Below are positions 6,292 to 42,650 of a DNA stretch of 64,000 nucleotides, piece by piece. The position numbers were made by a program, and so were the translations under genes. The stretch's first letter is position 1; the number at the start of each line of letters is the position of its first letter. The stretch comes from a virus (lineage: Duplodnaviria > Heunggongvirae > Uroviricota > Caudoviricetes), in IMG/VR virus record IMGVR_UViG_3300037468_000575, positions 1 through 64,000 of that record. One strand, given 5' to 3'. Below the pieces are notes generated by a model, which was not told the origin of the DNA, did not search any database, and saw only the letters and a program-made list of their open reading frames with translations.

Positions 6292-6321
6292 TAGGATACT
6301 ATCTAATTTCAAACAAAAAAC

Positions 6322-6499: not shown

Positions 6500-6521
6500 G
6501 TCAGATATACAGAGATTAGAA

Positions 6522-6731
6522 CTAACTTATAAACTTCTTATAACCGGGATTTGATAACTGTCGAAATTTGTCACATATATTATATTCGCATGTTATCTTA
6601 ACAAGACATTCTTTACAAGGACAATCTACTTGTTTCTTAAGACGTATGAAACTGCAATGACCCTCTATATAACAACCATTACATTCTATAGGGGTAGAAA
6701 TCATTTTAGTAACTACTTGATTGATTTCCAT
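6522..6731 (-). CDS. Cys-rich microprotein family member 1 (CPCxxC[LI][VI]K)
   Basis: ECNGC...HC...DCPCKECLVKITCEYNIC. Confidence 0.5.
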   Translation of the reverse strand: MEINQVVTKMISTPIECNGCYIEGHCSFIRLKKQVDCPCKECLVKITCEYNICDKFRQLSNPGYKKFIS

Positions 6732-6928
6732 CTACCCTCCAAAGAACGATCATATACATAGACTGAGGTGCTATGAAATCTAGCCATTGTTGTCTCAAAT
6801 ACTTGACATACATTATTTTCACACATTGTTTTTACAAGACATTCTTTACATGGGCAATCTTCTTCTCTCTTATAATGTTGTACAATACATGGAGGGTCTT
6901 GGATACAACCTTCACATTCTTTTAACAT
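6713..6928 (-). CDS. Cys-rich microprotein family member 2
   Basis: MLKECEGC...PC...DCPCKECLVKTMCENNVC. Confidence 0.5.
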   Translation of the reverse strand: MLKECEGCIQDPPCIVQHYKREEDCPCKECLVKTMCENNVCQVFETTMARFHSTSVYVYDRSLEGRWKSIK

Positions 6929-6962
6929 ATGATTATCTCTTGTTTTGAAAACATTCGTATTC

Positions 6963-7151
6963 TTACTCGGACTGTTGAATCCGTACTAGCTCATCAATAC
7001 TAGATGTAAGAATTTGATATGGATGACAAATGTCACTACAAATACCTTTAATGATACAGGTTTTACAAGGACAATCGTTTTGTCTATTGTTTATACGAAT
7101 CTCACATTTAAGGGAACCTTCTGAACAATCTTTACATTCTTTTATCATCAT
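6963..7151 (-). CDS. Cys-rich microprotein family member 3
   Basis: MMIKECKDC...KC...DCPCKTCIIKGICSDIC; AAGGA RBS. Confidence 0.5.
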   Translation of the reverse strand: MMIKECKDCSEGSLKCEIRINNRQNDCPCKTCIIKGICSDICHPYQILTSSIDELVRIQQSE

Positions 7152-7170
7152 TTATCCTTCGAAAGGAAAA

Positions 7171-7204
7171 AATAGGATTAGCTCAACCACAATCCTATTT
7201 TTTC
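7171..7204 (-). terminator. terminator hairpin
   Basis: AATAGGATT-11nt-AATCCTATT + T-run; A-run upstream. Confidence 0.5.
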
Positions 7205-7398
7205 CTTGTAGTCCATTGTTGTAATAAATTGGTGTTTCGTTCTGAACAGGTTTTACTGCATACAACTTTAACGATACAGGTTTTACAAGGGCAACCTGGA
7301 CTGACATCTAACATGTAGCACCATTTAAACATACACCCTTGACATTCTTGTTCTAATTTTTGTCTACCCTCGCTAGAGTTTGTATTTACATTTATCAA
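7195..7398 (-). CDS. Cys-rich microprotein family member 4
   Basis: ECQGC...WC...GCPCKTCIVKVVCSKTC. Confidence 0.5.
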   Translation of the reverse strand: MINVNTNSSEGRQKLEQECQGCMFKWCYMLDVSPGCPCKTCIVKVVCSKTCSERNTNLLQQWTTRKK

Positions 7399-7774
7399 TA
7401 ATGTTATTCCATTCCCTGCCCAATTTGTCTATATCAGGATTCAAAACCTCTCGTTGACCCTGTCCGTCATTAAGATCTATAAATACCTTCGGAGGCTGAT
7501 CCTTGGATGATCTAAACTTCTCAGTATCTTCATCAGCAGGAGATTCATTTGAGAAAAGTAATGAACTCATCTCTGTAAGAAGGCTTTGGATATCGATCAC
7601 AAGTTTAAGAACAGAGGATTCAAAATATGTAAGTATTTTTGGTTCTCTTGTTCCCGAATCGATTAGTTCTTTGATCTCTTTGATATACGGGGGTTCACCC
7701 TTATTCAACATGTTAATCCTCCCTTCGTTTTTGTGATTCGTCATAAATTTGTTTGGCGTCTTTAATTGCCTCAT
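7373..7774 (-). CDS. hypothetical protein (133 aa)
   Basis: ORF; interrupts the Cys-rich array. Confidence 0.4.
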   Translation of the reverse strand: MRQLKTPNKFMTNHKNEGRINMLNKGEPPYIKEIKELIDSGTREPKILTYFESSVLKLVIDIQSLLTEMSSLLFSNESPADEDTEKFRSSKDQPPKVFIDLNDGQGQREVLNPDIDKLGREWNNIIDKCKYKL

Positions 7775-8216
7775 CAGTTATGTCAGGCCCCTCTTGCGGA
7801 CCTAGGCTTTTATCCCAATCCAGAAATTTCTTTAGATCATGAGACATGGTCCGTTTCTCACAACCTGGATCTTTTTCTTCTTCAGGATGACACGTATCAT
7901 CAAGCTCTTGCTCATGCGTATAATCAAGTCCGCCATTAGGATCAAACATATCATCTGATCCAGCCATTGGGTCGTGTTTGGTAGGTTTCCTAGTCATAGA
8001 CGATTCCTTTTCAGTTAGTTGTTGTATACTGAGAATGACTCCAGAATGGATTGCACAAACTACATCGTCCACGGGTTGACCATCTTTTTCCAGATACCAG
8101 CGTTGGTGATTGGTATTTAATTCATCCATTTTGGGGTGTAGTTCCTCTAGCGTTTCGCCCACCGCTTCCTCTTGATATGTAGTACCGCAGTTCATTGACG
8201 CAAATAATACAAACAT
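7713..8216 (-). CDS. acidic hypothetical protein (167 aa)
   Basis: ORF; Asp/Glu-rich. Confidence 0.45.
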   Translation of the reverse strand: MFVLFASMNCGTTYQEEAVGETLEELHPKMDELNTNHQRWYLEKDGQPVDDVVCAIHSGVILSIQQLTEKESSMTRKPTKHDPMAGSDDMFDPNGGLDYTHEQELDDTCHPEEEKDPGCEKRTMSHDLKKFLDWDKSLGPQEGPDITDEAIKDAKQIYDESQKRRED

Positions 8217-8229
8217 AGATCGTCTCCTT

Positions 8230-8451
8230 TTAATCTTTTTTCTTAGACTTTTTTAGTCTATAAGTTCTATTATATTGTGACCGTTTAACTTTTTGTTGCG
8301 GAATCCATTTCTCCTTCCACTGAGGATGCCAATCAAACCATTGTCTTTTATATTCTTTTGCTGAGTTTATTTTATTAAACTTCATGATTTCTTTATCTGC
8401 CGGTGCCAATTTGAAACTACATTCTCCATTTGGGTGAATCGTAATCAGCAT
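8230..8451 (-). CDS. small basic protein (73 aa)
   Basis: ORF; Lys/Arg-rich C-terminus. Confidence 0.35.
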   Translation of the reverse strand: MLITIHPNGECSFKLAPADKEIMKFNKINSAKEYKRQWFDWHPQWKEKWIPQQKVKRSQYNRTYRLKKSKKKD

Positions 8452-8463
8452 TCTTTTCTCCTT

Positions 8464-8670
8464 TTATGTTCTATTTTTCCTTCGTGATTCAATCGCAATC
8501 TTCTTTTTATTTCCTCTTTTCTTTCGAAAGATTCTCTTCAAAGGTGACTGACTGAATTTCACTTTTCTCATGGTAGTTCCTAATCCTCCTATTCTATCAA
8601 GAACATCTGGTGCAAATGGATCATCTTCTTTGAATGGTTCTAATTTATGTAATAAGAACAATTGATTCAT
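8464..8670 (-). CDS. small basic protein (68 aa)
   Basis: ORF; KKRGNKKK tail. Confidence 0.35.
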   Translation of the reverse strand: MNQLFLLHKLEPFKEDDPFAPDVLDRIGGLGTTMRKVKFSQSPLKRIFRKKRGNKKKIAIESRRKNRT

Positions 8671-8691
8671 AATACTCCTGTTTTCTCTTGT

Positions 8692-9012
8692 TTATGGTTC
8701 AAGTGACTTCAATGCATATTCAAGCATCTTTAGAGCCCCGTGATACCATTCTCTCGCTCCAGGATGGGTTTGACAAACTAGTATATCTTTGAAATAAAAA
8801 TATTTATCTGTTTGATACCTTTGATATCTTGCACCGCAAACGAAGCATGGTTGAACTGGTTCGTTTTGATATATGTTTCGGCCTCCGTCTTTTCTTAAAA
8901 CAATGCGTTTATTTTCGAGAACGATATCTATTTCCTTGACTTTCCCTAGTTTTTGTACTACCAGCTCCAACTTTTTTATCTTATCAGATTTGCATACTTT
9001 TTTGTTCTTCAT
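8692..9012 (-). CDS. hypothetical protein (106 aa)
   Basis: AAGGAGAG RBS; promoter motif ~45 nt upstream; CFVCG...C..H. Confidence 0.45.
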   Translation of the reverse strand: MKNKKVCKSDKIKKLELVVQKLGKVKEIDIVLENKRIVLRKDGGRNIYQNEPVQPCFVCGARYQRYQTDKYFYFKDILVCQTHPGAREWYHGALKMLEYALKSLEP

Positions 9013-9055
9013 TACACTCTCCTTGAATAAATGTTTAGGGTTAGATCTTTCAATT

Positions 9056-9070
9056 AATTAATATATATAG
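9056..9070 (-). promoter_or_regulatory. conserved promoter-like motif
   Basis: AATTAATATATATAG; ~28 nt, then AAGGAGAG RBS, then ATG of 8692..9012. Confidence 0.5.
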
Positions 9071-9081
9071 GAATATCATTG

Positions 9082-9264
9082 TTACTTAGATCGAAAATAA
9101 TTTCTGGCGTCGCAAAATACACCACATGTAATTTTCACAAGACATTCCTCACATGGGCACGTTTCGGCTATCGTAAAAACGGAATAGTGATATCCGCAAA
9201 AAAACCAATGTGTACATCCTTCACATCCATTCTTCACTGGAGTTACTTCTGAAATACTCATCAT
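9082..9264 (-). CDS. Cys-rich microprotein family member 5
   Basis: GCEGC...FC...TCPCEECLVKITCGVFC. Confidence 0.5.
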   Translation of the reverse strand: MMSISEVTPVKNGCEGCTHWFFCGYHYSVFTIAETCPCEECLVKITCGVFCDARNYFRSK

Positions 9265-9448
9265 GCCTCCGATTACAAATAAATTCTCTCCATATCCACC
9301 ATAGTGAACAGCTATGCATACATGTAACTTTTACAATACATTCTTGGCATGGACAACTTTCTATGTGTTCTGGATGTCGGTCACGTATGAAACATACCGA
9401 GGTGTGACAATTACTGCATAATATTTTTATTGTATCCAATTGGCTCAT
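9221..9448 (-). CDS. Cys-rich microprotein family member 6
   Basis: CSNC...VC...SCPCQECIVKVTCMHSC. Confidence 0.5.
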   Translation of the reverse strand: MSQLDTIKILCSNCHTSVCFIRDRHPEHIESCPCQECIVKVTCMHSCSLWWIWREFICNRRHDEYFRSNSSEEWM

Positions 9449-9675
9449 TTCCTTATTAATTCACTGAAGTTTTGGATGTTCTTAAACCATCTCCACGATG
9501 TTCTTGGTTCACATGCTACAGTACAATTTATTTTAATAATACATTCTTGGCATGGACAATTTTCTATTTCCTGTGGATACGTTCGATAAACCAAACACAT
9601 ATGAATTGATGGACATTCCCTACATAATGTTATAGGATTCATTTTAAATACGTCCGTCCAACAAACCATCTCCAC
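9445..9675 (-). CDS. Cys-rich microprotein family member 7
   Basis: CREC...MC...NCPCQECIIKINCTVAC; true start probably internal M (MNPITLC). Confidence 0.5.
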   Translation of the reverse strand: MEMVCWTDVFKMNPITLCRECPSIHMCLVYRTYPQEIENCPCQECIIKINCTVACEPRTSWRWFKNIQNFSELIRK

Positions 9676-9899
9676 GATGCTCGTTGGTCACATTGAATAC
9701 TACAATTTATTTTAACTATGCATTTTCGGCATGGACAATTTCTTACTTCATATGTAAATTCTTTCTGAATCAAACATTCATGAACATGTTTTAAATGAGT
9801 ACAACCATTACAACCTAGGTTTTTTTTACTTATAGTATTCATTCTGCACCTTAGTTTTAACAAACCACGACGAATATGATCTTTCTTTACATGGATCAC
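9639..9899 (-). CDS. Cys-rich microprotein family member 8
   Basis: GCNGC...EC...NCPCRKCIVKINCSIQC; start probably internal M. Confidence 0.5.
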   Translation of the reverse strand: MIHVKKDHIRRGLLKLRCRMNTISKKNLGCNGCTHLKHVHECLIQKEFTYEVRNCPCRKCIVKINCSIQCDQRASWRWFVGRTYLK

Positions 9900-10077
9900 T
9901 ACAAATCATTTTAATAATACATTCTTGGCATGGGCAAGTTTTTATATATTCTCGATAACCATTATAAATCAAACAACAATGAATTGATGGACATTCCCTA
10001 CATAATGTTATAGGATCCATTTTACTTAGACCACAACTTAGATCCAACAAACCATCGCCACGATGCTCGTTGGTCAC
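9826..10077 (-). CDS. Cys-rich microprotein family member 9
   Basis: CREC...CC...TCPCQECIIKMICSDPC; start probably internal M. Confidence 0.5.
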   Translation of the reverse strand: MTNEHRGDGLLDLSCGLSKMDPITLCRECPSIHCCLIYNGYREYIKTCPCQECIIKMICSDPCKERSYSSWFVKTKVQNEYYK

Positions 10078-10267
10078 ATAGAATAGTACAATTTATTTTA
10101 ACTATGCATTCTTGGCATGGACAATTGCCTATTTCCGTTATATAATCTCTACAAATTAAACATCCGTTCAAATGATTTAAATAATCACAACCTTTACACT
10201 CTATGTTCATATTAACTAGACCCCATTCGAAGTGTGTCAAACCATTGCAATGACATTCTGTTTTCAC
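10022..10267 (-). CDS. Cys-rich microprotein family member 10
   Basis: ECKGC...GC...NCPCQECIVKINCTILC; start probably internal M. Confidence 0.5.
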   Translation of the reverse strand: MKTECHCNGLTHFEWGLVNMNIECKGCDYLNHLNGCLICRDYITEIGNCPCQECIVKINCTILCDQRASWRWFVGSKLWSK

Positions 10268-31740: not shown

Positions 31741-34429
31741 GTAAAATTTTATCTAGAACACCTTTATAATTCCCAGAATTTAAAATACCTTTCAAAATAT
31801 GTCTTCTCGGATTTGAAAATGCCAAGCCAAGAATCCAACTTTCATTACTAGGAACACTTTGAACACTAAAGTATGTAGGTTCTACTTTATCTCTATTATC
31901 TAATAATCTCCATTTCGTTCCTCCGGCCCAAGCCATTTGCGATACAACACATTCAAAATGAATATGTTGAATATCTTGATTATGACTATAGGCCTCATAT
32001 AACTCAGTTGTAATTTCTATACTAGATTTTTCTTTTAGTTTATGAAGGGTTTTTGTTACTTCTTTTAAATCATCGATGATGTCCATTTGCTTTAATGCAA
32101 TTTCATCTTCATCTTCATGATCTTTTACAACAGCAGATCCTGATGTATGGAAAGTTCTAAGAACTAACTGTGTTGCTCTCTCTCCAAGGGTTTGTGCAGC
32201 TATAACCCCAACAAATCTACTATGTAAACTTTTCCATAAATCTCCATAACATGTTTTACATAGTTTTTGAGATTTACAATAAATTGGACTTCTAAGTAAA
32301 ACTGTTTTACCAACAAAGGATTTATAATTCTCTTTAGTAATTTGATTTAGTTTAGTTTTACTTTCTAGATAAAATCTATTTATTAACATCTTGGCTTTCT
32401 TTTCTGTATCAACAAACACGTCTAAGGTATCTGTTGTTCCACAATCTTCTAAGTTTAAGTCAAGTTGTAAATTTGCGCATGTAAATATTAGTTTTCTTGA
32501 AAGATATCCAGACGTTCCTGTATTTATTGCAACATCCAGTAACCCTTTTCTACATCCATAAGTAGAATTAAAAAATTCTTCTTGTGTCAGACCTTCAAGC
32601 AAACTATGTTTAATCGGAGTTGGTAAAATCTTTCCCTCCGAGTTTGAAATAAAACCTCTAGCAAGAACTATTTGTTTGGCTTGATCCCAACTACCTCTTG
32701 CTCCAGAATCAATCATATAAGAATATTTAAAATTCATTCTTAAATTGTCTATAATTCCATCTTCTGAAAATCGAGCTAGTTGTTGTTCAGGACTATATCC
32801 TTCAAAAATATTATCTCGAAAAATATGGGAATCATCCCACTTAAAACCTAGAATGGACATAGTAGTACCAAATAGAGTAGAATACTTAAAGCCAAGTTTC
32901 TTTATTTCATCTAGACTAGTCATCATAATATCTTCATGATATTTCGCATTAATATCATTAAGAATTAACATGAGTCTTTTAGCATCAACAATTCCTGTTA
33001 CAACAGGATAATCTTGCGGTAAACATTCATTAAATTCCTGTTCACCTTTGGTTATACTTTGATTTTTATATTCTGTTGCTTCTAACGAGTTTGGAATTTT
33101 TTGTGATGTTAATGCGTAAATTCCTAAAATAATATCTTGACTAGGAATCGTTGTTAAATTTTGATTTGATGGACTAGAAAGATTTTTAGAAATGAAAATC
33201 TTCTCTCTGACTTCTTTTTTTGATTCTTCAGAAATAGGAATATATACAGCCATTTGATCTCCATCAAAGTCTGCATTGAATGGAGGACAAATCAATGGAT
33301 GGATTTTAATTACTGCGTCTCTAGTAATTAAAACCTTAAAACCCAAGAACCCGAGACGATGAAGACTTGGTTGTCTATTTAGAATGCAAACTTCCTTTTC
33401 TGCTAACTTTTCACAAAGAGAATATAACTCAAAAGATTCTGTATCAATACATGTATCGACACATTCAATCGCTGAGTTTAATGTATTATACTGTCCATAT
33501 TCAATCAATTTCTTTGCAATCGGCAACTTATAAATCTCTAGAAACATTAAATATGGAATTTTGCATTCATCTAGCGATAGAGTTGGATCAGGAACAATAA
33601 CAGCTCGTCCAGAAAAGTCAATTCTTTTACCTAAAATATTTCCACGAATAAGACCTTCCTTCTTTGACATCTTTTCTAAAATATGTTGATTTAATTCAAT
33701 CACATCTTTTTGTAATTGTTTGAAATAAGAATAATATAAATTCTTATCCCGTTGAATATTAAAAAATGTGTCTTTCATTACAGACGTTAGTTGTAATATT
33801 TGTACATAGTATCTATTTATTTTGTCAAGAACTTGATTATTTTTATTAATACCTTTCGCAGCTGGTCGAAGATCAGGAGGAAGAACAATGATATTATTAA
33901 TTAATAATTTATCAATGTTTTCTAGAATTAATTTCCATTCTTCTTTAACAGCATCTTTCGCAACAGTTTCAATCAACTTATGAATTGCTTCTGTTCGTTC
34001 CCAAGTTTGAGTATTTGGAGGAATCAAAGAAGAATCTAAGACAATTTCAGGATAATCATCTTTTAGAAATAAAATACTTTTTTCATTTCTCATTAACGTA
34101 TCAACAGCGGCTTTAATTTGGTTTCCAGAAATTGAAATAATTAAATCATAAAACAATGGGTTGACCACAGGAATAGGTAACGCAATTTTTGCAAATCTAG
34201 TTCTTCGTTCATCACTATTGACAATTTCAACCAAACACATATTGCACTTACCCCCAGATTTTGACACTCCATAATATGTACCACACTGACAAGTATAATT
34301 ATGCTGAGGTCCAAATATTTGCTCTGAAAATAAGCCCTCTGGATGAAATTTCTTCTTATCAACAATTCTTGTTGATGTTATACTTGGTAAATCTTTACAG
34401 AAGCTGTCATAATCTAAAAGTTTTGGCAT
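31721..34429 (-). CDS. rpoC: DNA-directed RNA polymerase beta' subunit, compact (902 aa)
   Basis: N-term Zn finger CQCG...CNMC; VLPPDLRP; NRQPSLHRLG; NADFDGDQMAVYIP catalytic motif. Confidence 0.9.
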   Translation of the reverse strand: MPKLLDYDSFCKDLPSITSTRIVDKKKFHPEGLFSEQIFGPQHNYTCQCGTYYGVSKSGGKCNMCLVEIVNSDERRTRFAKIALPIPVVNPLFYDLIISISGNQIKAAVDTLMRNEKSILFLKDDYPEIVLDSSLIPPNTQTWERTEAIHKLIETVAKDAVKEEWKLILENIDKLLINNIIVLPPDLRPAAKGINKNNQVLDKINRYYVQILQLTSVMKDTFFNIQRDKNLYYSYFKQLQKDVIELNQHILEKMSKKEGLIRGNILGKRIDFSGRAVIVPDPTLSLDECKIPYLMFLEIYKLPIAKKLIEYGQYNTLNSAIECVDTCIDTESFELYSLCEKLAEKEVCILNRQPSLHRLGFLGFKVLITRDAVIKIHPLICPPFNADFDGDQMAVYIPISEESKKEVREKIFISKNLSSPSNQNLTTIPSQDIILGIYALTSQKIPNSLEATEYKNQSITKGEQEFNECLPQDYPVVTGIVDAKRLMLILNDINAKYHEDIMMTSLDEIKKLGFKYSTLFGTTMSILGFKWDDSHIFRDNIFEGYSPEQQLARFSEDGIIDNLRMNFKYSYMIDSGARGSWDQAKQIVLARGFISNSEGKILPTPIKHSLLEGLTQEEFFNSTYGCRKGLLDVAINTGTSGYLSRKLIFTCANLQLDLNLEDCGTTDTLDVFVDTEKKAKMLINRFYLESKTKLNQITKENYKSFVGKTVLLRSPIYCKSQKLCKTCYGDLWKSLHSRFVGVIAAQTLGERATQLVLRTFHTSGSAVVKDHEDEDEIALKQMDIIDDLKEVTKTLHKLKEKSSIEITTELYEAYSHNQDIQHIHFECVVSQMAWAGGTKWRLLDNRDKVEPTYFSVQSVPSNESWILGLAFSNPRRHILKGILNSGNYKGVLDKILLGERIS

Positions 34430-34644
34430 TATTTATCCTCTTTGTTATCTTTATTATCAAAAAGTTCTTTTGTTTTCTCTGAGAGAAACACAAAATGTTG
34501 TTTTACATGTTTTGAAACAATTTCATCAATAGAGGGAAGTAGTTCAAGAACTAGTTTTTTGATTTGGTCTTGTCCTAGTTCCCCAAAATACTTTTGGCAT
34601 TCTTTTTTAATTATTTCTTTTAATGTAGCTTCAAGGTCCGACAT
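34429..34644 (-). CDS. small acidic/basic protein (71 aa)
   Basis: ORF with tight junction to rpoC-like start. Confidence 0.35.
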   Translation of the reverse strand: MSDLEATLKEIIKKECQKYFGELGQDQIKKLVLELLPSIDEIVSKHVKQHFVFLSEKTKELFDNKDNKEDK

Positions 34645-34656
34645 ATGATCTCCTTT

Positions 34657-34992
34657 TCAAAATGGAATATATTTAACATCACCCCATGGCATGAAATACG
34701 CATTTTCTAAATTAAAAGTTACTAATGTGTTTTCTAATAACATTTGAACTTTATGCGTAAATTCATGCCATCTAATTTGAGGCGGAAGACAAAACTCTGC
34801 TGTTGCAGACTTACAATTTGGATGAATAGATTTTCTGAGATATACGGTATCAAGTTTCTTATCTACTAGTAATATTTCATAACAGGGAATTATATATTTC
34901 TTGTCTAAATAGGTTATTTTATATAATTGTCCTTTGTATTTCAAACGTTCCGGTACTAAAGTTTTTTTAATAGTTTTTGTAACAAGGTTCAT
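34657..34992 (-). CDS. minimal E2 (UBC)-like protein candidate (111 aa)
   Basis: SIHPNCKSATAEFCLPPQIRW parallels the canonical E2 HPN-x7-8-C-L-x5-6-W spacing; start overlaps the E1-like stop (34992). Confidence 0.4.
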   Translation of the reverse strand: MNLVTKTIKKTLVPERLKYKGQLYKITYLDKKYIIPCYEILLVDKKLDTVYLRKSIHPNCKSATAEFCLPPQIRWHEFTHKVQMLLENTLVTFNLENAYFMPWGDVKYIPF

Positions 34993-35846
34993 TAAGCAGC
35001 ACCAGTTTCAGGAAGTAGTTCAATGTAGAATTTTGGACCTTGGGAAATGCTAATAACATACGAATTGAATTTAAATGGGCTTTGGACCATACTCACAAAA
35101 TGCATTATCAGATCACCACTTGAATGCAGACTGTTTTGCGGAATTACATTTTGAAATAGCGGAAATGATTTGCCTCCAACATAAACATCAATTGGGGAAG
35201 ATTTATTTTGTTCCAAAACCAAAGGTATACTCTGAGGTAAATTAATAAATTTTTGTTCCCCAGCCGTTGAATCATATATTATATCTTCTTGTGTATCATT
35301 AATCTTCATAAAATCTAAATCAAACTTATTTACAGTTTGAGCTGTTATCATTTTTTCTAATGTCTTATTTGTCATTAACATTGTAACTAAAGAGGACGCA
35401 GTTTTCAAATCATTTGAAGATATTAGTTCTAAATATTGGCCCTCATATTTTAGTTGTGATTGAATATTTTTTCTACAATCTACAACAAGATACCTAGACG
35501 AAATATATAATCTCGTGTCAATCAAAGTACCTCTGTCATATAAATAGTCTCGACAATCTAAAACTAAATTGCAAGTAGGTAAGAATGTTTCACCCTCAAT
35601 AAACCTTAACTTATATAAAGTTATTTTTATGTTCGGGATTCGCATAGTTACAATCTGTTTGAGACATTCTACTTTTGGTTTACCAACATCTGACAATCTA
35701 TAAATTGAATTCTTTAAATTTTTATCTTCAACAAGATCGCCATCGAAAATTATAATTTCTTTTATACTATCAATTTTTGAAATAGAATCTACTACAAATC
35801 CACCCAACGCCCCAACCCCAAGAACACAGACTTTTTCAAAGATCAT
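34992..35846 (-). CDS. ThiF/MoeB/E1-like adenylyltransferase 2 (284 aa)
   Basis: VCVLGVGALGG...IIFDGDLVEDKNLKN...DVGKPKVECL (Rossmann GxGxxG + DxDxVExxNL + G.pK motif). Confidence 0.6.
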   Translation of the reverse strand: MIFEKVCVLGVGALGGFVVDSISKIDSIKEIIIFDGDLVEDKNLKNSIYRLSDVGKPKVECLKQIVTMRIPNIKITLYKLRFIEGETFLPTCNLVLDCRDYLYDRGTLIDTRLYISSRYLVVDCRKNIQSQLKYEGQYLELISSNDLKTASSLVTMLMTNKTLEKMITAQTVNKFDLDFMKINDTQEDIIYDSTAGEQKFINLPQSIPLVLEQNKSSPIDVYVGGKSFPLFQNVIPQNSLHSSGDLIMHFVSMVQSPFKFNSYVISISQGPKFYIELLPETGAA

Positions 35847-36024
35847 AATATCGACTTTAAACTCGAAATTTAGAATACATTCTTTGAATTATATCTTCTT
35901 GGGAGAACATCAGGGGAAAAAAGTTTATGATCATTATGATTCAATACCTCCGGAAAGTAATTAACTTGGAATCAAAAACGAATGACATCTTGATCCCAAG
36001 TTAATTTTTACAATAAAATATAGG

Positions 36025-36600
36025 TTATGTTTTATTTACTGGTGTCTCTAATAAATTCTTTTCAAGTCTTGTTAACAATGGTTCATAAGCAGATTTAAAC
36101 GTGAATCCATGATATAAAGCCAGTGTAAGGGGTAGCAACTTTGGAAGATAAATTTTTGCAATCCTTTTTTCTGTTCCATTTTTATATACAGTTGTCCTAA
36201 TGATTTCAAATTTAGGAATATCGTTAAATCCATAGATGTCTCTTAATTCATGTTCACATTTTTCAACAAGTACAATATCGTCATGACTTCTGACTTTAAC
36301 GATTTTCTTACAATATTTTTTCCAGTCTTTACGACCAACATTAATTGGAAGATTTGTAGACTTTTTAAACAATGCTGTTAATGCACGTCGAAAAGCTCTA
36401 TCCTTTCCTTCTTTTTTATTATAAGAATCCATTACTGACTTTATAGAGACTCCTCTTGAAAGAAGAAAATTCTCTTCATTTAAAAGAAGACAAACAGTGA
36501 GAACAGGTCCCAGAAAGGGTATCTGTGCGGAATTAATCTCATAGAATTTAATTTTTGTAGCTCCCATCGTTGTTAATAGAGCTTTTGTCTTCGCTTTCAT
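36025..36600 (-). CDS. hypothetical protein (~191 aa from ATG at 36600)
   Basis: Track start 36636 is TTG and overlaps hairpin; ATG at 36600 (MKAKTKAL). Confidence 0.45.
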   Translation of the reverse strand: MKAKTKALLTTMGATKIKFYEINSAQIPFLGPVLTVCLLLNEENFLLSRGVSIKSVMDSYNKKEGKDRAFRRALTALFKKSTNLPINVGRKDWKKYCKKIVKVRSHDDIVLVEKCEHELRDIYGFNDIPKFEIIRTTVYKNGTEKRIAKIYLPKLLPLTLALYHGFTFKSAYEPLLTRLEKNLLETPVNKT

Positions 36601-36625
36601 TTTTTTTCTCCAAAAGAAATGTAGT

Positions 36626-36647
36626 AGGGGGTTCAAAAGAACCCCCT
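36626..36647 (-). terminator. GC-rich hairpin (attenuator/terminator?)
   Basis: AGGGGGTTC-aaaa-GAACCCCCT between the Ubl gene stop and the next gene start. Confidence 0.4.
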
Positions 36648-36657
36648 TGGGACTTAA

Positions 36658-37287
36658 TTATACAGACGTCTTCTTAAGAAGGCGTTTCTTCTCTTGTGCC
36701 GCTCTCATCGCTGATTTAATTTTTGATGCTATATCCGGGTTGGCCCAAGCGGCTTTCATAGCAGCTTTATGTTTTTGTCTAACTTCTGGTCTATTATGAA
36801 TTTCTTTCATCGTTGGTTTAACCGAAACTGGTGTAGCCGGGGAAGACGGAGCTTCTTCATCACCTTTATCGCCAGCTGGTTTTAGAAATTCCAGACTATC
36901 CCCTGATTCGATAATATAACTGTTGTCAACTTCTTCACCATTCACAATACCTAATGACATTCTGTCAATATTCAAGGCTTCTTTCAAAAGCTCAGCTACT
37001 GCACCAACGGTTTTACCACAAACGGAGAATTTATCAGAGCTTGCTCCACAAGAAACTTTAATTCTAGTTTCTGTTCGTTCTCCTGCTGGGGCATCACTAT
37101 CTATTACAGTAGTTCTGAATTGACCTTTGATTTGTTCAGGCATTGACTCTGATTCTTGAATACTTAAAATATTATCAATTACAACATCTTTTCTTTGTTT
37201 TGACATTCCTTTAATCCCTAGATTGCGACAGATATCTCTGAGACCATCTAAAGTAAAATCAATTAATTCTTGTTCTGTGTATTTCAT
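36658..37287 (-). CDS. HeH(SAP/Rho-N-like) + beta-grasp ThiS/MoaD-like Ubl fusion with basic C-terminal extension
   Basis: N-term LDGLRDICRNLGIKGMSKQRKDVVIDNIL; middle IKVSCG...GKTVGAVAELL...LGIVNGEEVDNSYIIESGDSLEFLKPAG (ThiS/MoaD pattern vNGe.v...l.dGD.l.fl.P.G); ~70-aa tail after the AG. Confidence 0.5.
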   Translation of the reverse strand: MKYTEQELIDFTLDGLRDICRNLGIKGMSKQRKDVVIDNILSIQESESMPEQIKGQFRTTVIDSDAPAGERTETRIKVSCGASSDKFSVCGKTVGAVAELLKEALNIDRMSLGIVNGEEVDNSYIIESGDSLEFLKPAGDKGDEEAPSSPATPVSVKPTMKEIHNRPEVRQKHKAAMKAAWANPDIASKIKSAMRAAQEKKRLLKKTSV

Positions 37288-37302
37288 AAAAAACCTCCAA
37301 AA

Positions 37303-37977
37303 TTACTTTACTCGTCGTTGTTTCGAATCAACAACCATTTTTCCGATATCGAAATAAACTTCAGATTTTTCGATATCTTGAAGAATCACTGCATTGTAAA
37401 ACAGCCAACACATTATAACGGCTGCGGTTACATTTGTAAATATTAATTGCGGCTCTGACAAAGCCAATTCTTCACACGATAATTCGTCTGGTGATTTATC
37501 TGTTGCATTTCTAATTTCTGGATGATAAGCACATAAATCTGGTGTTACATCTTTTCCCTCCTTCCTTATAAAAAGTTGGGCATTCCCATTAGTATAAAAA
37601 TTTCCTCCTGATATAAGCGTAATATTTTGTAGGGTTTTGCAATAGTCTGAAACGATTTTTCTGGTTTTATGATTATCAACACCCAGAAACACTATAGAAT
37701 CTTCCGTAATAAAGTTTAGGGTGTCTGAAGTCACATAGTGAGGAATTGCATCTATATTTATGTTCTTGAATTTCTGGATTAAATCTGCAACTTTGCTCTG
37801 AGCTTTATTACCAAGATTGTTAAAGCTTTGTCTACTAGAATTTTTTGGCTCATAAGCGTCCCCGTCAATCAAAACTAGGTCACAATTTTGAAATGCTGGC
37901 CATGAGTTTATATAACGAGCTATTAAGTCACTTAAGATACTTCCAATTCCTCCTAATCCTACGATAATAATCTTCAT
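37303..37977 (-). CDS. ThiF/MoeB/E1-like adenylyltransferase 1 (224 aa, minimal)
   Basis: MKIIIVGLGGIGS...LVLIDGDAYEPKNSSRQSF...GNKAQSKV. Confidence 0.6.
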   Translation of the reverse strand: MKIIIVGLGGIGSILSDLIARYINSWPAFQNCDLVLIDGDAYEPKNSSRQSFNNLGNKAQSKVADLIQKFKNINIDAIPHYVTSDTLNFITEDSIVFLGVDNHKTRKIVSDYCKTLQNITLISGGNFYTNGNAQLFIRKEGKDVTPDLCAYHPEIRNATDKSPDELSCEELALSEPQLIFTNVTAAVIMCWLFYNAVILQDIEKSEVYFDIGKMVVDSKQRRVK

Positions 37978-37980
37978 TTA

Positions 37981-38925
37981 TCAAGACTCCTCATTAGTTT
38001 TTACTGTTGTAAAAAAATCTTTTGATGGATCGGTTTGTGTTTCCAAATCATCTAAATCATTGTCCAAAACAAACTCTTCTAAATTATATGCTTTTATTAA
38101 ATCTTCTTCAAATCTTTTTTTACCATGATGAAAGACCTCGCATCCAAAACAAGGATGTGTGCTACTACTCTCATTACCATCTTCATCACCTAAGAATGCT
38201 GATAAATCGTATGAAGGAATTATAGATGAAGGAACATATTTAACTTTCTTATTAATTTTCCGAAGCCATTTTTTATTATATGGATGAGTCAAAGATGAAT
38301 CTATTTGATATTTATATTTCTTCTCTGCGTTAGTTGGTGTTGGTAGACTTTTTCTAATTATGCCATCAATATATTCTCCTGCATCAACAATAAATCTCTT
38401 TCCATTAATAACAATACTTGAAGAGATATCGAACATGGGTTGATCTATATGACCAACAGTAATATGTAATCCATCAAAATGTTGTTCATCTCTATCATCG
38501 ACATAGGAATGCCAGGCTGACATACTCCCATGACTATGAATTGTGCCTATTAATTGATAATTTGGAATCGTTTTTAAATTTTGATAAGATACCGCACCTC
38601 CACTTACTTGTTGATTTGGTATATATAGTTTATACCATTTTCTTTTTGAATTATAATATAGTAAGATAACTGCTTCTGCATGATATTTATTATAAATATC
38701 TTTACAGAAGTTAATAACCTTCGAAAATACTATCTTTGGAATTTTAGGAACGTTTAAACGCGCTTGTTCTGTTATATCATTTAATATAGAAATTTGATCA
38801 ACTTTGATAATACTATGAACTAAGTCAAATGTTTTTTTTAAAAAAATTCCATTTTTGGCAATGATATAATAGATATTATCTTGCGGAGGAGGTTGTTGTC
38901 CATCATTTATAAATATTTTAAACAT
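37981..38925 (-). CDS. JAB/MPN (JAMM) metallopeptidase domain protein (314 aa)
   Basis: GTIHSHGSMSAWHSYVDD = H-x-H-x7-S-x2-D with upstream Glu (HAEAV). Confidence 0.55.
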   Translation of the reverse strand: MFKIFINDGQQPPPQDNIYYIIAKNGIFLKKTFDLVHSIIKVDQISILNDITEQARLNVPKIPKIVFSKVINFCKDIYNKYHAEAVILLYYNSKRKWYKLYIPNQQVSGGAVSYQNLKTIPNYQLIGTIHSHGSMSAWHSYVDDRDEQHFDGLHITVGHIDQPMFDISSSIVINGKRFIVDAGEYIDGIIRKSLPTPTNAEKKYKYQIDSSLTHPYNKKWLRKINKKVKYVPSSIIPSYDLSAFLGDEDGNESSSTHPCFGCEVFHHGKKRFEEDLIKAYNLEEFVLDNDLDDLETQTDPSKDFFTTVKTNEES

Positions 38926-41366
38926 TAATCAAATATCCTTTTATCAAATTTAAAGTTAAATTTTCCATTAGTATTAAAAATTATATTATCATTTCCATGT
39001 ATAAACCCGTTTATCCATGTATTGTAACTATTAGATTCTTCTACTCGTGGATAAAGAAACCCAACTCTGGCTGTCTTTACTTTTGTCGTCAACGCAACTC
39101 CATTCCGCAATCGATAAATATTTAAATTAAAGAGTCGAAGACCAGAATAGTTTATATGATATAATAAAATCTGAGTCCCATCAAATTTCGATAATTCTTC
39201 GAACATATCGAGTTGTTGAGCTTTAATTTTTACGATATCTGGATTTTCAACATTAGTATTAGGTACAATATTAAAGTTCTCTTCTACTTGAAATGGCCAT
39301 AATGTACAACAATTCGACATTAAGACCAGTGGAAATTTTGTGAAATTACATCCAATAAAACCTATAATTCTATAATTTGCTCTTCTTGGAAAACAAGAAA
39401 TACCCACTGTTTTTGGTTTGATTACCATTCCTGCTTTTAAATTCTTATATTCAGTTTCGATATGTTTAAAAGAAGAACATAAAATTTTGTCTCCGATAAC
39501 AATTGGATCTTGTCTTATCGACTCTCCATCTGTAGTTTCAACTAACACTCGCTTTTCTTCATCATTAACTATAAAGTTTGTAATTGATCGTCTCTTTATC
39601 ATTTCATTTGGTTCATTCCAACATGCGACCACTATTCTATCACCAATGTTTAATGCTGCTGTTCCCGGAAACCTAATTTCATTTGGTGTAACAAACTGCT
39701 TAATCTCTTCAAATGAAGCTGATTCAACCTGATTATAATTCAAGCAATATATTCGATCATTATAATACAAAAACCCATCTTGAAGTTTAGCTAAGTGATC
39801 ATAGGCAAGTGTAAATGAAGTGATATCCTTGCTAAGATCAGTATAAGGCAATAAAATATCTTTGGTTATCTGTGTGAGCTCTATACGTTTGACTACTCTA
39901 GTAAGATTAACTGGGGATGTAAATTCAATATATATCTGATCATATTGATGAACAATTTGTTTACAAACGACAAGCTCACAACTCCCCATCATTCCGTGTT
40001 CTAATCCATGTAAGAAATAATATTTTTCTCCTGTAACTATTGAAGTCCCATGAATATTTATTTTATTTTTATCAAATTTTTGGATTTTTATATGATCTAC
40101 TATATATCTTTTTCCATTTGCTAGTTGAAATAAGATCCTACCAGTTCGATCCTTTATAATAGTATCGATTACAGAATGAATTTTCCCCAAAAATTGAAAC
40201 TCGAGAACTACTATATCTCCAACAGAATATGTTTCTCCTTTGATTTCCACAGACGGTGGGCATTGATTCTCCTTGAGTTTCCTTACTAATTTATGTCTTA
40301 GGTTATGGCTATCTAGAACCTGATAAGTTTTTCCGTTACTATCTTCGAATACAATATAGCCTATTCCGGAAACTGACAGAAAATCTTTAATATAAAGTTC
40401 TTTTTTATGTAGTGTTACTTTATCACCGATAGATAAACAAAAGCTATCAATTATGATACTATCAATCCAATTGGTAAACGCTACAATTGGTGTTCTTTTT
40501 TTACTCACTAAATGTGGCGAGTTTATCATATTAACCATGGTTTCAAATGATCTCAACGAGGGATTATATAGGTGCTGCTCGTTTTCGATTTGATCAATTC
40601 GCTCCCCAAGATCTGTCTTTACATCTTCCCAAGCCACATTAAAAACAAACTGAGAATCTTTAACTGAATAATATTGCCATTGCAAAAAATCAGAAACAAA
40701 TTCTGTATTTTGATAAGCCAAATAATTACTTGGTAAATCTTTGTTAAATACTGATGACCAGAAATGATCAAAATATTCGTCAATCATGTCCGGAATAGAT
40801 GTTGATTTTATGTGATACGATCCCGGGCATACTTTTTGAGCCTCATCAATATTTGGTAAGTTTGACTTTAGTAAATAATCAAATGTACTTTTTAACGGAG
40901 ATAAGCGATAAAACAATGAATGAGAGATCGTTGGATCAAGAGACGGTGTTAAAGTTAAGACAAGAACATGCACAATATATGGAAAGGATACTCGAAAGGT
41001 ATATGGAACACCTATTGGCTTTAATACAAAATCTTTATAGCCAAATTCTTCAAGTTTTCCTTCTGTTTTAAGTCGTTCTACAGAAGATTCCATTGATAAA
41101 TTTACTCGAAGTGTTCTTGTTGTTGGCTTATCTTCAAGAACAAAGAGAAATCGTTGGGATTCTACCTCGTCATTATATTGTTTGACAAACCTACAATTTT
41201 TTGGAAGAATGAACGGACTAGAATTTAAGTTGAATCCATGTGACAATTTTTCAAGAAATGAAGATGTTAAAGTTGTTTTCTCATGAATTACGGATTCACT
41301 AGCAAGTTCATCAATTGTGGTATATGTATATTCTGGATCGATTCGAATAACTTTTTTTATACCCAC
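38925..41366 (-). CDS. large hypothetical protein (813 aa)
   Basis: Long ORF; no motif recognised. Confidence 0.6.
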   Translation of the reverse strand: MGIKKVIRIDPEYTYTTIDELASESVIHEKTTLTSSFLEKLSHGFNLNSSPFILPKNCRFVKQYNDEVESQRFLFVLEDKPTTRTLRVNLSMESSVERLKTEGKLEEFGYKDFVLKPIGVPYTFRVSFPYIVHVLVLTLTPSLDPTISHSLFYRLSPLKSTFDYLLKSNLPNIDEAQKVCPGSYHIKSTSIPDMIDEYFDHFWSSVFNKDLPSNYLAYQNTEFVSDFLQWQYYSVKDSQFVFNVAWEDVKTDLGERIDQIENEQHLYNPSLRSFETMVNMINSPHLVSKKRTPIVAFTNWIDSIIIDSFCLSIGDKVTLHKKELYIKDFLSVSGIGYIVFEDSNGKTYQVLDSHNLRHKLVRKLKENQCPPSVEIKGETYSVGDIVVLEFQFLGKIHSVIDTIIKDRTGRILFQLANGKRYIVDHIKIQKFDKNKINIHGTSIVTGEKYYFLHGLEHGMMGSCELVVCKQIVHQYDQIYIEFTSPVNLTRVVKRIELTQITKDILLPYTDLSKDITSFTLAYDHLAKLQDGFLYYNDRIYCLNYNQVESASFEEIKQFVTPNEIRFPGTAALNIGDRIVVACWNEPNEMIKRRSITNFIVNDEEKRVLVETTDGESIRQDPIVIGDKILCSSFKHIETEYKNLKAGMVIKPKTVGISCFPRRANYRIIGFIGCNFTKFPLVLMSNCCTLWPFQVEENFNIVPNTNVENPDIVKIKAQQLDMFEELSKFDGTQILLYHINYSGLRLFNLNIYRLRNGVALTTKVKTARVGFLYPRVEESNSYNTWINGFIHGNDNIIFNTNGKFNFKFDKRIFD

Positions 41367-41368: not shown

Positions 41369-41674
41369 TTATCCTCGTTTTTTCAAATATTGTTTATTCT
41401 TTGTTTTTAACCATTCAACATTCTTAAATGGAATGGATCGCCATTCCACTTTATCTAGATCAAAAATATGAACGATTCCACTTGTTTTGACCAGCTTAAG
41501 AACCTTGGCAAAATTAAAATCTTTTGGATGGTGTTCTTTAGGAATTCTTTTAAAATTTAAAGTTGCATTCATAATTCTTTCTGTTCCATCTTTTTTTATA
41601 AATTTTACTGTTACAATATCGTTACTGATAATTTTCTCCCAAAAGTCAATGATATCATCAATTAAATCAGTCAT
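41369..41674 (-). CDS. hypothetical protein (101 aa)
   Basis: ORF overlapping gmd start. Confidence 0.45.
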   Translation of the reverse strand: MTDLIDDIIDFWEKIISNDIVTVKFIKKDGTERIMNATLNFKRIPKEHHPKDFNFAKVLKLVKTSGIVHIFDLDKVEWRSIPFKNVEWLKTKNKQYLKKRG

Positions 41675-42650
41675 ACTTCTTTCCTCCCATTTCAGTTTGT
41701 ACCATTAGCAATATTAATTCTAGAAAATCAATTCTTGGTTTCCACCCCAACCTTTCTTTTGCCTTAGTTGCGTCACCACAAGAACGGTGTATATCCAGAG
41801 GACGATATAAGTTTTTATCAATAATAACATATTTTTGATAGTTTAAGTTCACCAATTGGAATGCAAGATTTACAAACTCTCGAACACTATGTGTTTCTCC
41901 AGTTGCAATAACATAATCATCTGCCTTAGATTGTTGAAGCATTAACCACATAGCTAGTACATAATCTTTGGCGTAACCCCAATCTCTTTCCGCTTGTAAA
42001 TTTCCCAAATGTACATTTGTTTGAGATCCTTTTTTAATGTTAACTACTGATTGAACAATTTTCTTACTTAGAAATTGTTCAGCTCGACGCGGTGATTCAT
42101 GATTAAAAAGAATTCCGCAACAAATAAACATACCCAATTGTCTATAATATTTTGCTAAGTGAAAACCTGTAACTTTAGAAATTCCGTATGGAGATACAGG
42201 ATTAAATGGAGTCAATTCCGTTTGCAGAAGTTGTGTACTTCGACCAAACATTTCACTGGATGCAGCAAAATATACTTTACAGTGTGGGCATACTTGATGT
42301 AAAATAGACAAAATATTATATGTTCCATTTATATTCGTATACATGGTTTCTTGTTCATACTTAAATGAATCTTCAACACCACTATTCGCAGCTAAATGAT
42401 AACATTCATCTGGATTTACCTCTGCAATTATCTTACGTAATGTATGATAATCTTCTATGGATGAAAAATGAAGATGTATCTGTTCTAATATATTAGAAAT
42501 TCTATAATAACGTTCATTTGTTAATAGTGCTATACTAGGTCTTATAATTCCATGAACAATATACTCTTTAGATAAGAGAAGTTCAGCTAAGTAACTTCCA
42601 TCTTGCCCGGTAATTCCTGTAATTAGAACTACTTTAGAATTTTCGGACAT
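41667..42650 (-). CDS. gmd: GDP-mannose 4,6-dehydratase
   Basis: VLITGITGQDGSYLAELLL, SPYGISK (YxxxK), GILFNHESPRR, ERDWGYAKDYV, DYVIATGETHSVREFV, LGWKP; near-colinear with E. coli Gmd. Confidence 0.9.
   Translation of the reverse strand: MSENSKVVLITGITGQDGSYLAELLLSKEYIVHGIIRPSIALLTNERYYRISNILEQIHLHFSSIEDYHTLRKIIAEVNPDECYHLAANSGVEDSFKYEQETMYTNINGTYNILSILHQVCPHCKVYFAASSEMFGRSTQLLQTELTPFNPVSPYGISKVTGFHLAKYYRQLGMFICCGILFNHESPRRAEQFLSKKIVQSVVNIKKGSQTNVHLGNLQAERDWGYAKDYVLAMWLMLQQSKADDYVIATGETHSVREFVNLAFQLVNLNYQKYVIIDKNLYRPLDIHRSCGDATKAKERLGWKPRIDFLELILLMVQTEMGGKKYD

Follow-up and report, generated by a model that had tools for sequence, protein, structure and literature searches.

A predicted ubiquitin-like conjugation and deconjugation cassette beside the RNA polymerase genes of an uncultivated jumbo phage

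To date, work on ubiquitin-like conjugation in prokaryotes has described it as a form of cellular immunity against phages, with type II CBASS, Bil and Bub as the instances. A cassette of the same kinds of enzyme in a phage genome reverses the usual host-versus-phage assignment, and it raises the questions of whether the parts make up a complete system and what the virus would do with it. The cassette discussed here lies in a 64,000-nucleotide stretch of tailed-phage DNA (positions 1–64,000 of the IMG/VR virus record IMGVR_UViG_3300037468_000575), which we refer to as the window. We think it probable, with real room for doubt, that the cassette encodes an enzymatically complete system for attaching and removing a ubiquitin-like protein (Ubl), and that this system is a core module of an uncultivated clade of jumbo phages. 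The protein families, their invariant catalytic residues, the terminal glycine of the modifier and the conserved gene order are supported by sequence, and from these we infer the chemical steps, the targets and the role of a helix-extended-helix (HeH) domain carried by the modifier.

An earlier annotation of this stretch, made from its letters and open reading frames (ORFs) and referred to here as the original prediction, had placed six co-oriented genes at 34657–38925, between a gene for an 813-residue (813-aa) protein and the gene for the RNA polymerase (RNAP) β' subunit, and had read them as a phage-borne complete Ubl-conjugation toolkit. All six are real genes at those coordinates and in that orientation, and each of the cited motifs is found in the window translations. 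The core claim is supported, and none of the findings that had been named as speaking against it (no β-grasp together with no UBC fold, unconserved JAMM or E1 residues, or homologues tied to sulfur-carrier genes) was made. The limit at 38925 was too short, as the 813-aa ORF itself belongs to the cassette and carries an E2 domain. The cassette genes are all on the minus strand and are densely packed: from the 813-aa ORF through to the last E2-like gene the intergenic gaps are −1, 3, 15, 21, 178 (before E1b) and −1 nucleotides (nt). In order of transcription, the features are as follows.

38925–41366, minus strand: 813-aa ORF at the head of the cassette
40707–41099, minus strand: E2_D-like core within the 813-aa ORF, residues ~90–220
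40827–40829, minus strand: codon of the candidate catalytic Cys180, in the active-site loop NLPNIDEAQKVC
37981–38925, minus strand: JAB, a JAMM/MPN+ metallopeptidase of 314 aa
38674–38676, minus strand: codon of Glu84 of JAB
38497–38538, minus strand: JAMM motif HxH-x7-S-xx-D of JAB
37303–37977, minus strand: E1a, a minimal adenylating E1 of the MoeB/ThiF type, 224 aa
37474–37476, minus strand: codon of the candidate catalytic Cys168 of E1a
36658–37287, minus strand: HeH::Ubl precursor, 209 aa
37153–37287, minus strand: HeH (Rho_N-like) domain at the N-terminus of the Ubl precursor
36862–37074, minus strand: β-grasp, after a linker, ending at Gly142
36661–36861, minus strand: basic helical tail of 67 aa that follows Gly142
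36025–36636, minus strand: conserved uncharacterised protein, 203 aa from a TTG start or 191 aa from the first ATG
34992–35846, minus strand: E1b, a second E1-like protein, 284 aa
34995–35012, minus strand: PETGAA tail at the extreme C-terminus of E1b
34657–34992, minus strand: mini-E2 candidate, 111 aa
34789–34824, minus strand: HPN-x8-C active-site loop of the mini-E2
34429–34644, minus strand: small conserved ORF of 71 aa between the mini-E2 and rpoC'
downstream from 34429: rpoC' and then rpoB

Single-sequence scans of IMG/VR returned one close relative only and alignment-based scans were required; these found 67 distinct viral contigs, including contigs of 223, 248, 269, 277 and 312 kb. 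Contigs from JGI, ENA and Logan were added through protein-identity look-ups, and in 76 loci every ORF was searched with a hidden Markov model (HMM) of each family to establish the gene order; protein identities between the loci are 17–50%. Every locus that is long enough has the same order: the big E2_D protein, JAB, E1a, Ubl, (the uncharacterised protein), E1b, mini-E2 and rpoC'. The synteny search that the original prediction had called for was thus carried out, and the cassette order recurs in ~70 related viral loci on contigs of up to 312 kb. The conservation counts given below were made on 54–61 unique homologues per family, at median identities of 17–52%, and the catalytic residues of the cassette are invariant across them. 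The neighbours are also conserved, both upstream (an SbcC-like gene, a radical SAM gene and a small WYL_2-like protein) and downstream (rpoB and the GTP cyclohydrolase FolE2). INPHARED yielded no cultured-phage relatives, whether the cassette was compared by megablast or E1b and the Ubl by tblastn. We regard the cassette as a core module that is fixed in this clade of jumbo phages (220–310 kb); conservation as strict as this across the clade speaks for a core viral function and against an accessory gene of sporadic occurrence.

The best-supported E2 of the cassette is predicted to be the 813-aa protein, which the original prediction had left out. The Pfam family Prok-E2_D matches the N-terminal third of the family in four of four divergent homologues. 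The E-values are 0.011, 0.0075 (the window copy, at 16.4 bits), 3.5e-4 and 4e-6, the last of these at 27.1 bits, over the gathering score of 25 bits. When a profile of the family was compared with the PDB, nine of the 11 matches were to UBE2L3, and the loop LPNIeesgkvC of the phage protein aligned on HPNIDEKGQVC86 of UbcH7. The candidate catalytic Cys180 is present in 54/54 homologues, Asn172 and Pro129 in 53/54 each and Trp203 in 52/54. The remaining ~550 residues form a β-rich C-terminal region for which no family match was found, and the whole protein may be read as an E2 that carries its own region for recognising substrates. The locus L002 has a tandem duplication of the gene (3310–5667, 785 aa, and 5667–8111, 814 aa), with the N..C loop in both copies.

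The JAB gene appears to encode a catalytically intact JAMM peptidase, in line with the JAB/MPN assignment and intact JAMM motif of the original prediction. Glu84, His130, His132, Ser140 and Asp143 are unchanged in 57/57 unique homologues, and the top 18 of 18 matches of the family profile to the PDB are JAMM deubiquitinases (RPN11, BRCC36 and PSMD14) that align on the motif. Pfam Prok-JAB itself stays below its 25-bit cut-off, both for the window protein (17 bits, E = 0.0056) and for the L002 homologue (24.4 bits, E = 2.9e-5). The JABs of many relatives are longer, at 450–620 aa (for example L006 6431–8110 and L007 6501–8282), with C-terminal extensions rich in CxxC zinc ribbons (Pfam DZR_2, faint); the window JAB retains a single conserved P-C-x-x-C-x-V-F knuckle.

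E1a is predicted to be an active MoeB-like E1. It matches Pfam ThiF above the cut-off (E = 6e-17), and its family profile finds MoeB (3e-9), Uba4 (2.8e-7), ThiF and UBA5 in the PDB and, more weakly, BubCD (6e-4). Gly7, Gly9, Gly10, Gly12, Asp38, Asp40, Asn46, Arg49, Gln50, Lys58, Asp101, Asn102 and Arg106 are each present in 57/57 homologues; the description of this protein as a minimal 224-aa ThiF/E1-like adenylyltransferase thus holds, and the JAMM and E1 residues whose loss in homologues would have told against the original prediction are all invariant. Cys168 is likewise found in 57/57, in the sequence SCEEL on a loop downstream of the adenylation core, and is a candidate for the thioester cysteine.

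The modifier is best described as a Rho-N-type HeH domain fused to a β-grasp of the MoaD/Urm1 type, with moderate confidence for the β-grasp. The HeH domain matches Pfam Rho_N (E = 1e-3), with precomputed PF07498 matches in five of nine homologues. Comparison of the Ubl profile with the PDB gave the Rho N-terminal domain at E = 0.05 and no β-grasp matches, and the HeH part of the AlphaFold2 (AF2) model matches Rho-N in Foldseek with a probability of 1.0 and a root-mean-square deviation of 0.7 Å. Residues ~72–142 give weak Pfam matches to TGS (0.0046), Ub-Mut7C (0.045) and ThiS (0.066). The AF2 model has a β-α-β-β-β arrangement over residues 74–136, where the predicted local distance difference test score (pLDDT) is 47–76, and the small domains matched by Foldseek are mostly TGS, MoaD, parkin-Ubl, SUMO-like, TtuB and Atg12. 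Alignment of the family by hhalign gave Urm1 at E = 1.9e-4 and MoaD at E = 4.9e-3. The structural check that had been proposed for 36658–37287 therefore yields a β-grasp, predicted with moderate confidence.

The C-terminal consensus of the Ubl family is E-F-[LI]-K-x-x-G-x-K-G, in which G-x-K-G is invariant. Among 54 unique homologues, 41 end exactly at the last Gly, ten run one residue further (Cys in nine, Phe in one), one runs two and one five residues further, and the window protein continues for 67. Because 41 of the 54 stop exactly there, we place the mature end of the window Ubl at Gly142 of PAGDKG, and the 67-aa tail is then peculiar to the lineage of the window; a basic helical tail of 62–67 aa is limited to the window Ubl and the three proteins nearest to it in the protein search. 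The original prediction is supported for the β-grasp, the HeH domain and the basic tail, and was wrong in ending the modifier at PAG. It had also deduced that the JAB must process the precursor. For the window protein such processing would be required, with cleavage after Gly142, but the case is exceptional, as the 41 relatives already end at Gly.

The tail itself is predicted to be helical with good confidence (pLDDT 74–90), contains two ~16-aa repeats of the form P-[ED]-[VI]-x-x-K-x-K-x-A-M-[KR]-A-A and has a GC content of 0.43, compared with 0.315 for the genome. A resemblance of these repeats to DNA-binding elements of the NUMOD3 type found no support, there being no Pfam match at E ≤ 0.01. 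At the locus L007 (8987–9997) the Ubl gene is frameshifted past the HeH domain, by an assembly error or as a pseudogene. In some relatives, such as L055 (4352–4714) and L076 (5042–5368), a gene immediately upstream of the one for the big E2 encodes an additional, stand-alone HeH protein, which consists of an HeH domain and an acidic tail.

The second E2 candidate, of 111 aa, is probably a UBC-like E2 in truncated form, without helix 1 and the last two helices. A word-based search found five close relatives only. With an exhaustive search by HMMER the family grew to 131 clusters (50% identity), with representatives of 81–237 aa (mostly 100–160 aa), of which 106 have the HPN-x8-C motif. His57 and Cys68 are each conserved in 61/61 homologues, Asn59 in 60/61 and Pro58 in 58/61. 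The HPN-x8-C-L-x6-W spacing noted in the original prediction therefore stands for His57, Pro58, Asn59, Cys68 and Pro70, which are conserved, and fails for the Trp, which is not. A profile of 129 sequences gave two PDB matches at E ≤ 10, both of them UBC E2s (E = 0.58 and 1.0) aligned on the HPNxxxxTGxxC loop; a six-sequence profile gave chance matches only, for example thrombin. When the family was aligned by hhalign with four canonical E2s, whose sequences were entered by hand, the E-value was 4.5e-4 over 80 columns that span the β-meander, the active-site loop and the following helix 2, while five families of the cassette, used as controls, gave 0.08–0.7. The 129-member alignment had one E2-family match in each of Pfam and PADLOC, which we treat as suggestive noise. 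The earlier reading as a minimal E2 is thus backed by the profile evidence, and the UBC fold is not confirmed (AF2 pLDDT 41).

The start of the mini-E2 gene overlaps the stop codon of E1b, and an overlap of 1 or 4 nt between the two is found in 44 of 73 loci; the two genes are translationally coupled. E1b is the second E1-like protein that the original prediction had proposed, an assignment borne out by its match to Pfam ThiF (E = 1.8e-15). Its profile finds UBA3, MccB, MoeB, ThiF and Cap2 in the PDB, and its best matches in the PADLOC defence library are E1 domains of the Cap2 type (E = 8e-10). The G-loop, Asp35, Asp37, Asn43, Lys58, Asp97, Asp100 and Arg105 are conserved. Throughout the family, Asn-Ser (Asn46/Ser47) takes the place of the Arg-Gln pair of the ATP site and, as the conserved arginine is lacking, E1b may not adenylate. 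Among 185,579 GTDB genomes, each representing a species, no relative of E1b was found. The likeness between E1a and E1b is confined to the P-loop region, and the cellular homologue described below has no E1b; we therefore discarded the idea that the two are recent paralogues forming a BilD-like pseudo-dimer.

The C-terminal ~90 residues of E1b form a domain of no detectable family, for which a second β-grasp was considered and found no support from hhalign or Pfam. The protein ends in the pattern [PE]-E-T-G-[AGS]-A, which is better conserved than the body of the protein: Gly282 is present in 61/61 and Ala284 in 59/61 homologues, and 113 of 120 database homologues end in TGAA. In the window the tail reads as a sortase-like LPETG string, which is probably a coincidence because most E1b relatives have IPETG. 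Conserved E1 tails dock E2s in UBA5 and ATG7, and the E1b tail could be such a docking tail, a substrate of the JAB, or a cis-encoded modifier tail like the C-terminus of the type II CBASS CD-NTase.

Between the Ubl and E1b genes, and always there, lies the 191/203-aa protein, with homologues detected in about half of the loci. Its invariant residues are T..C, RG.SI.S..D, G and RA. No Pfam match was found, and its PHROGs matches are of unknown function only. We considered and set aside an identity as an anti-CBASS sponge of the Acb4 family, for which the only signal was PDB entry 9e4w at E = 0.87, with no match to PF13876.

How much of this cassette is needed for conjugation is suggested by a cellular counterpart. 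A search of 185,579 species-representative genomes with the Ubl found one relative, encoded in a Candidatus Falkowbacteria metagenome-assembled genome on a contig of 220 kb (JAPLVY010000004.1; L009). It belongs to a four-gene operon (6038–10219) between the housekeeping genes polA and gpmI/yebC/ruvC/glgA. The E2_D protein there has 745 aa and is membrane-anchored, with the E2_D domain at the C-terminus (HMM E = 9e-24); the JAB and E1a match the phage HMMs at E = 1e-69 and 6e-76, respectively. The Ubl has 70 aa (MSKAVKVICGANE...GDSLEFIKPAGDKG*), ends in EFIKPAGDKG and has no HeH domain, which places the core of the phage Ubl at residues ~72–142. There is no E1b, no mini-E2 and no other linked partner in the operon. 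The set of E2_D, JAB, E1a and Ubl is thus probably self-sufficient, and the HeH domain, E1b and mini-E2 are then viral additions. The operon may represent an uncharacterised Bil-like system of candidate phyla radiation (CPR) bacteria and may also be a hint to the host range of the phages.

Put together, the parts suggest the following cascade. The modifier would consist of the HeH domain, the linker and the β-grasp ending in G-x-K-G, as the sequences support. In the window phage, the JAB would remove the 67-aa basic tail after Gly142, releasing a basic peptide that, by analogy, recalls the ubiquitin–ribosomal-protein fusions. E1a would adenylate Gly142 and probably form a thioester on Cys168, and the Ubl would be passed to Cys180 of the Prok-E2_D domain of the 813-aa protein, the C-terminal region of which may pick the target and so make the protein an E2/E3 hybrid. 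The JAB would also undo the conjugation. E1b and mini-E2 would be a phage-specific second pair, which may aid the cascade, with E1b as a partner or E2-docking subunit, or may form a second relay. The net effect would be that a nucleic-acid-binding HeH module is fixed covalently onto phage or host proteins during infection. As the cassette always lies beside the viral RNAP genes, transcription- or DNA-associated proteins are, speculatively, the first candidates for targets.

By parts list, the closest known system is Bil, an ISG15-like system with which bacteria counter phages (Hor et al., 2023, preprint, 10.1101/2023.09.04.556158; Chambers et al., 2023, PMC10557695). Both have a Ubl with an obligatory C-terminal Gly, a cysteine E2, a JAB and an E1, and no separate E3; short overhangs past the Gly occur in some of the Ubls, and the Falkowbacteria operon has exactly the four-gene composition of Bil. 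The differences are that Bil is encoded by the host and the cassette by a virus; that E1a is a single MoeB-type adenylation domain of 224 aa, whereas BilD is a pseudo-dimer with IAD-AAD-CYS in one polypeptide (PMC10557695); that the cassette Ubl is a single β-grasp with an HeH domain, whereas the Bil Ubl is a double ubiquitin-like fold; and that the cassette E2 is a Prok-E2_D domain heading an 813-aa protein, with an extra E1-like/E2-like pair present. By E1 and Ubl family, the closest systems are the archaeal SAMP/UbaA/HvJAMM1 and the eukaryotic Urm1/Uba4, which share the modifier of the MoaD/ThiS/Urm1 type, the minimal MoeB-type E1 and the JAMM peptidase that matures and removes the modifier. 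SAMP/UbaA and Urm1/Uba4 have GG termini and no E2 and double as sulfur carriers, whereas the cassette has two cysteine E2-like proteins, a G-x-K-G terminus and no sulfur-pathway genes.

The coupled E1b and mini-E2 genes, with a JAB alongside, resemble a split Cap2 of type II CBASS in reverse order. In the cassette, however, the E2 and E1 are separate ORFs, a dedicated Ubl is present and the genes are phage-borne; Pfam and PADLOC gave no CD-NTase match among the cassette proteins, and no CD-NTase or effector adjoins the cassette. We conclude from the lack of an E2–E1 fusion and of a CD-NTase match that it is not type II CBASS. Bub (6E/DUF6527) has an E1 and E2 without catalytic cysteines, Tyr/Ser oxyesters and a DUF6527 serine protease (Ye et al., 2024, PMC11601596). 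It shares with the cassette the E1/E2/Ubl set and a JAB, varied N-terminal domains on the Ubl and cleavage of the precursor by the JAB, and it is BubCD that matches E1a at 6e-4. With the cysteines of E1a, the E2_D domain and mini-E2 invariant and no DUF6527 match detected among the cassette proteins, the cassette is not Bub either. The only long-known phage pairing of a ThiS/MoaD-like Ubl with a JAB is TAPI and TAPK (JAB-NlpC/P60) in the tail assembly of lambda and T1 (Iyer et al., 2006, PMC1779556); it lies in the tail cluster, with the JAB fused to NlpC/P60 and with no E1 or E2, whereas the cassette lies beside the RNAP genes and has the full machinery.

A published phage cassette of E1, E2, Ubl and JAB was not found in full-text searches of the literature, which agrees with the statement in the original prediction that a full phage-borne cassette with an HeH::Ubl fusion was not recognised. 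The nearest items are three E1-like genes in the Asgard 'Nidhogg' viruses and the TAPI/TAPK pair of lambda. A survey of 224 jumbo-phage genomes has no mention of JAB, ThiF or ubiquitin-like genes, and in a 2026 review ubiquitin signalling appears under giant eukaryotic viruses and not under jumbo phages. What is new here is the virus-encoded system, the HeH::Ubl modifier, the giant E2 and the extra E1/E2-like pair.

Several other explanations of the cassette have to be weighed. The likeliest of them, which we still think doubtful, divides the genes into two modules, with the E2_D protein, JAB, E1a and Ubl as one Ubl system and E1b with mini-E2 as a separate Cap2-like relay. The modifier of the latter would be the ETG-A-A tail of E1b itself, adenylated and then conjugated, in cis or in trans, like the CD-NTase C-terminus of type II CBASS, and perhaps first trimmed of Ala-Ala by the JAB. 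The cellular homologue has the first module only, the E1b and mini-E2 genes are translationally coupled, the tail outdoes the protein body in conservation, E1a and E1b are not recent paralogues, and E1b is nearer to Cap2 than E1a is. On the other side, the C-terminal domain of E1b has no detectable β-grasp or other family signal, Asn46/Ser47 in place of Arg/Gln may preclude adenylation, and the conserved tail may just dock an E2. Next, and unlikely, is counter-defence against host Bil, type II CBASS Cap2/Cap3 or Bub: the viral JAB would strip host Ubl or CD-NTase conjugates, E1b and mini-E2, as a split Cap2-like pair, would divert or mimic components of the host, and the 191/203-aa protein would be a nucleotide sponge. 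The Cap2 matches of E1b, the membership of the JAB in a Cap3/BilC-like family and the weak Acb4 profile match of the 191/203-aa protein all point this way, and an arms-race origin is plausible because the cellular homologue has a Bil-like composition of four parts. However, anti-defence genes are usually sporadic, and all the relatives examined have the cassette, with an unchanged position and gene order, as expected of a core function; a JAB alone would suffice for stripping, with no need of a Ubl, two E1s and two E2s; and the Acb4 link is non-significant and unsupported by Pfam PF13876. Less likely again is a two-tier system in which an arm of E1a and E2_D attaches the HeH-Ubl, for example to the viral RNAP or to proteins that travel with the DNA, and so tethers them to the genome, an arm of E1b and mini-E2 uses the ETGAA tail of E1b as a cis-encoded modifier, and the single JAMM peptidase matures both. 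If this were true, E1b would be both an E1-like enzyme and a tag, and protein tagging would be a core step in the phage life cycle and not host defence.

A sulfur carrier is a further alternative, which we regard as quite improbable. The Ubl would be thiocarboxylated by E1a and unmasked by the JAMM peptidase, as in CysO/Mec+ or QbsE/QbsD, and the sulfur would go to a cofactor, a tRNA or a base of the phage DNA. The nearest solved relatives of E1a (MoeB, ThiF and Uba4) and of the Ubl (Urm1 and MoaD) fit this, as do the conserved radical-SAM and GTP cyclohydrolase neighbours and the ten of 54 Ubls with one residue past the Gly (nine Cys, one Phe); such a one-residue extension resembles masking of the QbsE type. 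But sulfur-carrier systems have no E2, and the cassette has two fixed E2-like proteins with an invariant Cys; the Ubl ends in G-x-K-G rather than the usual GG and bears a nucleic-acid-binding HeH domain. A tie of the homologues to sulfur-carrier genes, which would have spoken against the original prediction, was not seen: no ThiG, MoaE, CysM, TtuA-like, rhodanese or cysteine desulfurase partner was found across the ~70 loci, with the called genes of L002–L008 and the window cassette among those covered, or in the four-gene cellular operon. Least probable of all, and in our judgement very improbable, is phage-carried defence or superinfection exclusion by Bil-like tagging of the proteins of competitor phages. 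The four-part composition is that of BilABCD (Ubl, E2, JAB and E1), and mobile elements often bear defence systems. Against this, the genomes that carry the cassette resemble those of large lytic phages rather than prophages, with no relative of E1b found in the 185,579 genomes, the cassette is universal and fixed within a replication/transcription block whereas defence islands are variable, and E1a lacks the IAD-AAD-CYS architecture of BilD.

The reading that we prefer, a complete Ubl system with a core viral function, has its own difficulties. The whole cascade is deduced from comparisons of sequence, and the proposed role of the HeH domain and any link to RNAP are deduced from position. The AF2 confidence for the Ubl is moderate (pLDDT 67.6 overall and 47–76 over the β-grasp), and the Foldseek matches for the β-grasp, none better than E = 0.05, include RCK_C domains. 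For the mini-E2, the sequence links to E2s are below database-wide significance, and AF2, run with five close homologues, produced no usable model (pLDDT 41) and Foldseek matches that are meaningless. The nearest solved structures to E1a are E1s of sulfur carriers. Finally, part of the system is left unexplained, as there are two E1-like and two E2-like proteins where the cellular homologue has one of each. We nonetheless favour a core viral function, namely the tethering or marking of DNA- or transcription-associated proteins, on three grounds: the cassette is strictly conserved, it adjoins the RNAP genes, and its tag bears a module of a nucleic-acid-binding type.

A core module of this kind in a viral genome implies that covalent tagging of proteins serves phage replication itself, in parallel to giant eukaryotic viruses, and the HeH::Ubl fusion suggests a new use of tagging, the tethering of proteins to nucleic acid. 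The CPR bacterial counterpart links the viral and cellular versions. The 224-aa E1, the 111-aa E2-like protein and the 70-aa cellular Ubl are small, separable parts for considering the evolution of E1–E2 cascades and, as every catalytic residue is known, the hypotheses are directly testable by reconstitution.

The window comes from a large AT-rich tailed-phage genome (31.5% GC), and its ORFs of 150 aa or more are, with one exception, encoded on the minus strand. It also encodes a T4-type terminase, an SbcC-like ATPase, a type II topoisomerase and a helicase. The RNAP β and β' genes are unsplit, and their best identity to any cultured phage is 26–28%. ARAGORN found no tRNA or tmRNA genes in the 64 kb, and scans of the window for σ70 promoters and terminators were uninformative in such AT-rich DNA. 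The 71-aa ORF downstream of the mini-E2 has counterparts at the same position in L001 (9418–9633) and L005 (667–876) and is an uncertain member of the tagging system. A gene called from sequence alone as GDP-mannose-4,6-dehydratase-like (41667–42650, 327 aa) lies between the radical-SAM/WYL_2 block and the cassette and is missing there in L002, L006 and L007. Homing-endonuclease genes (NUMOD4, HNH_3 and NUMOD3-like repeats) are inserted in some relatives between E1b and mini-E2, between rpoC' and rpoB, or after rpoC' (L008 8248–9145 and 12390–12986; L001 12353–13216). L001 also encodes, at 27–737, a 236-aa protein with about ten tandem repeats of ~23 aa (YYCKNIKDRPEIRKxITES).

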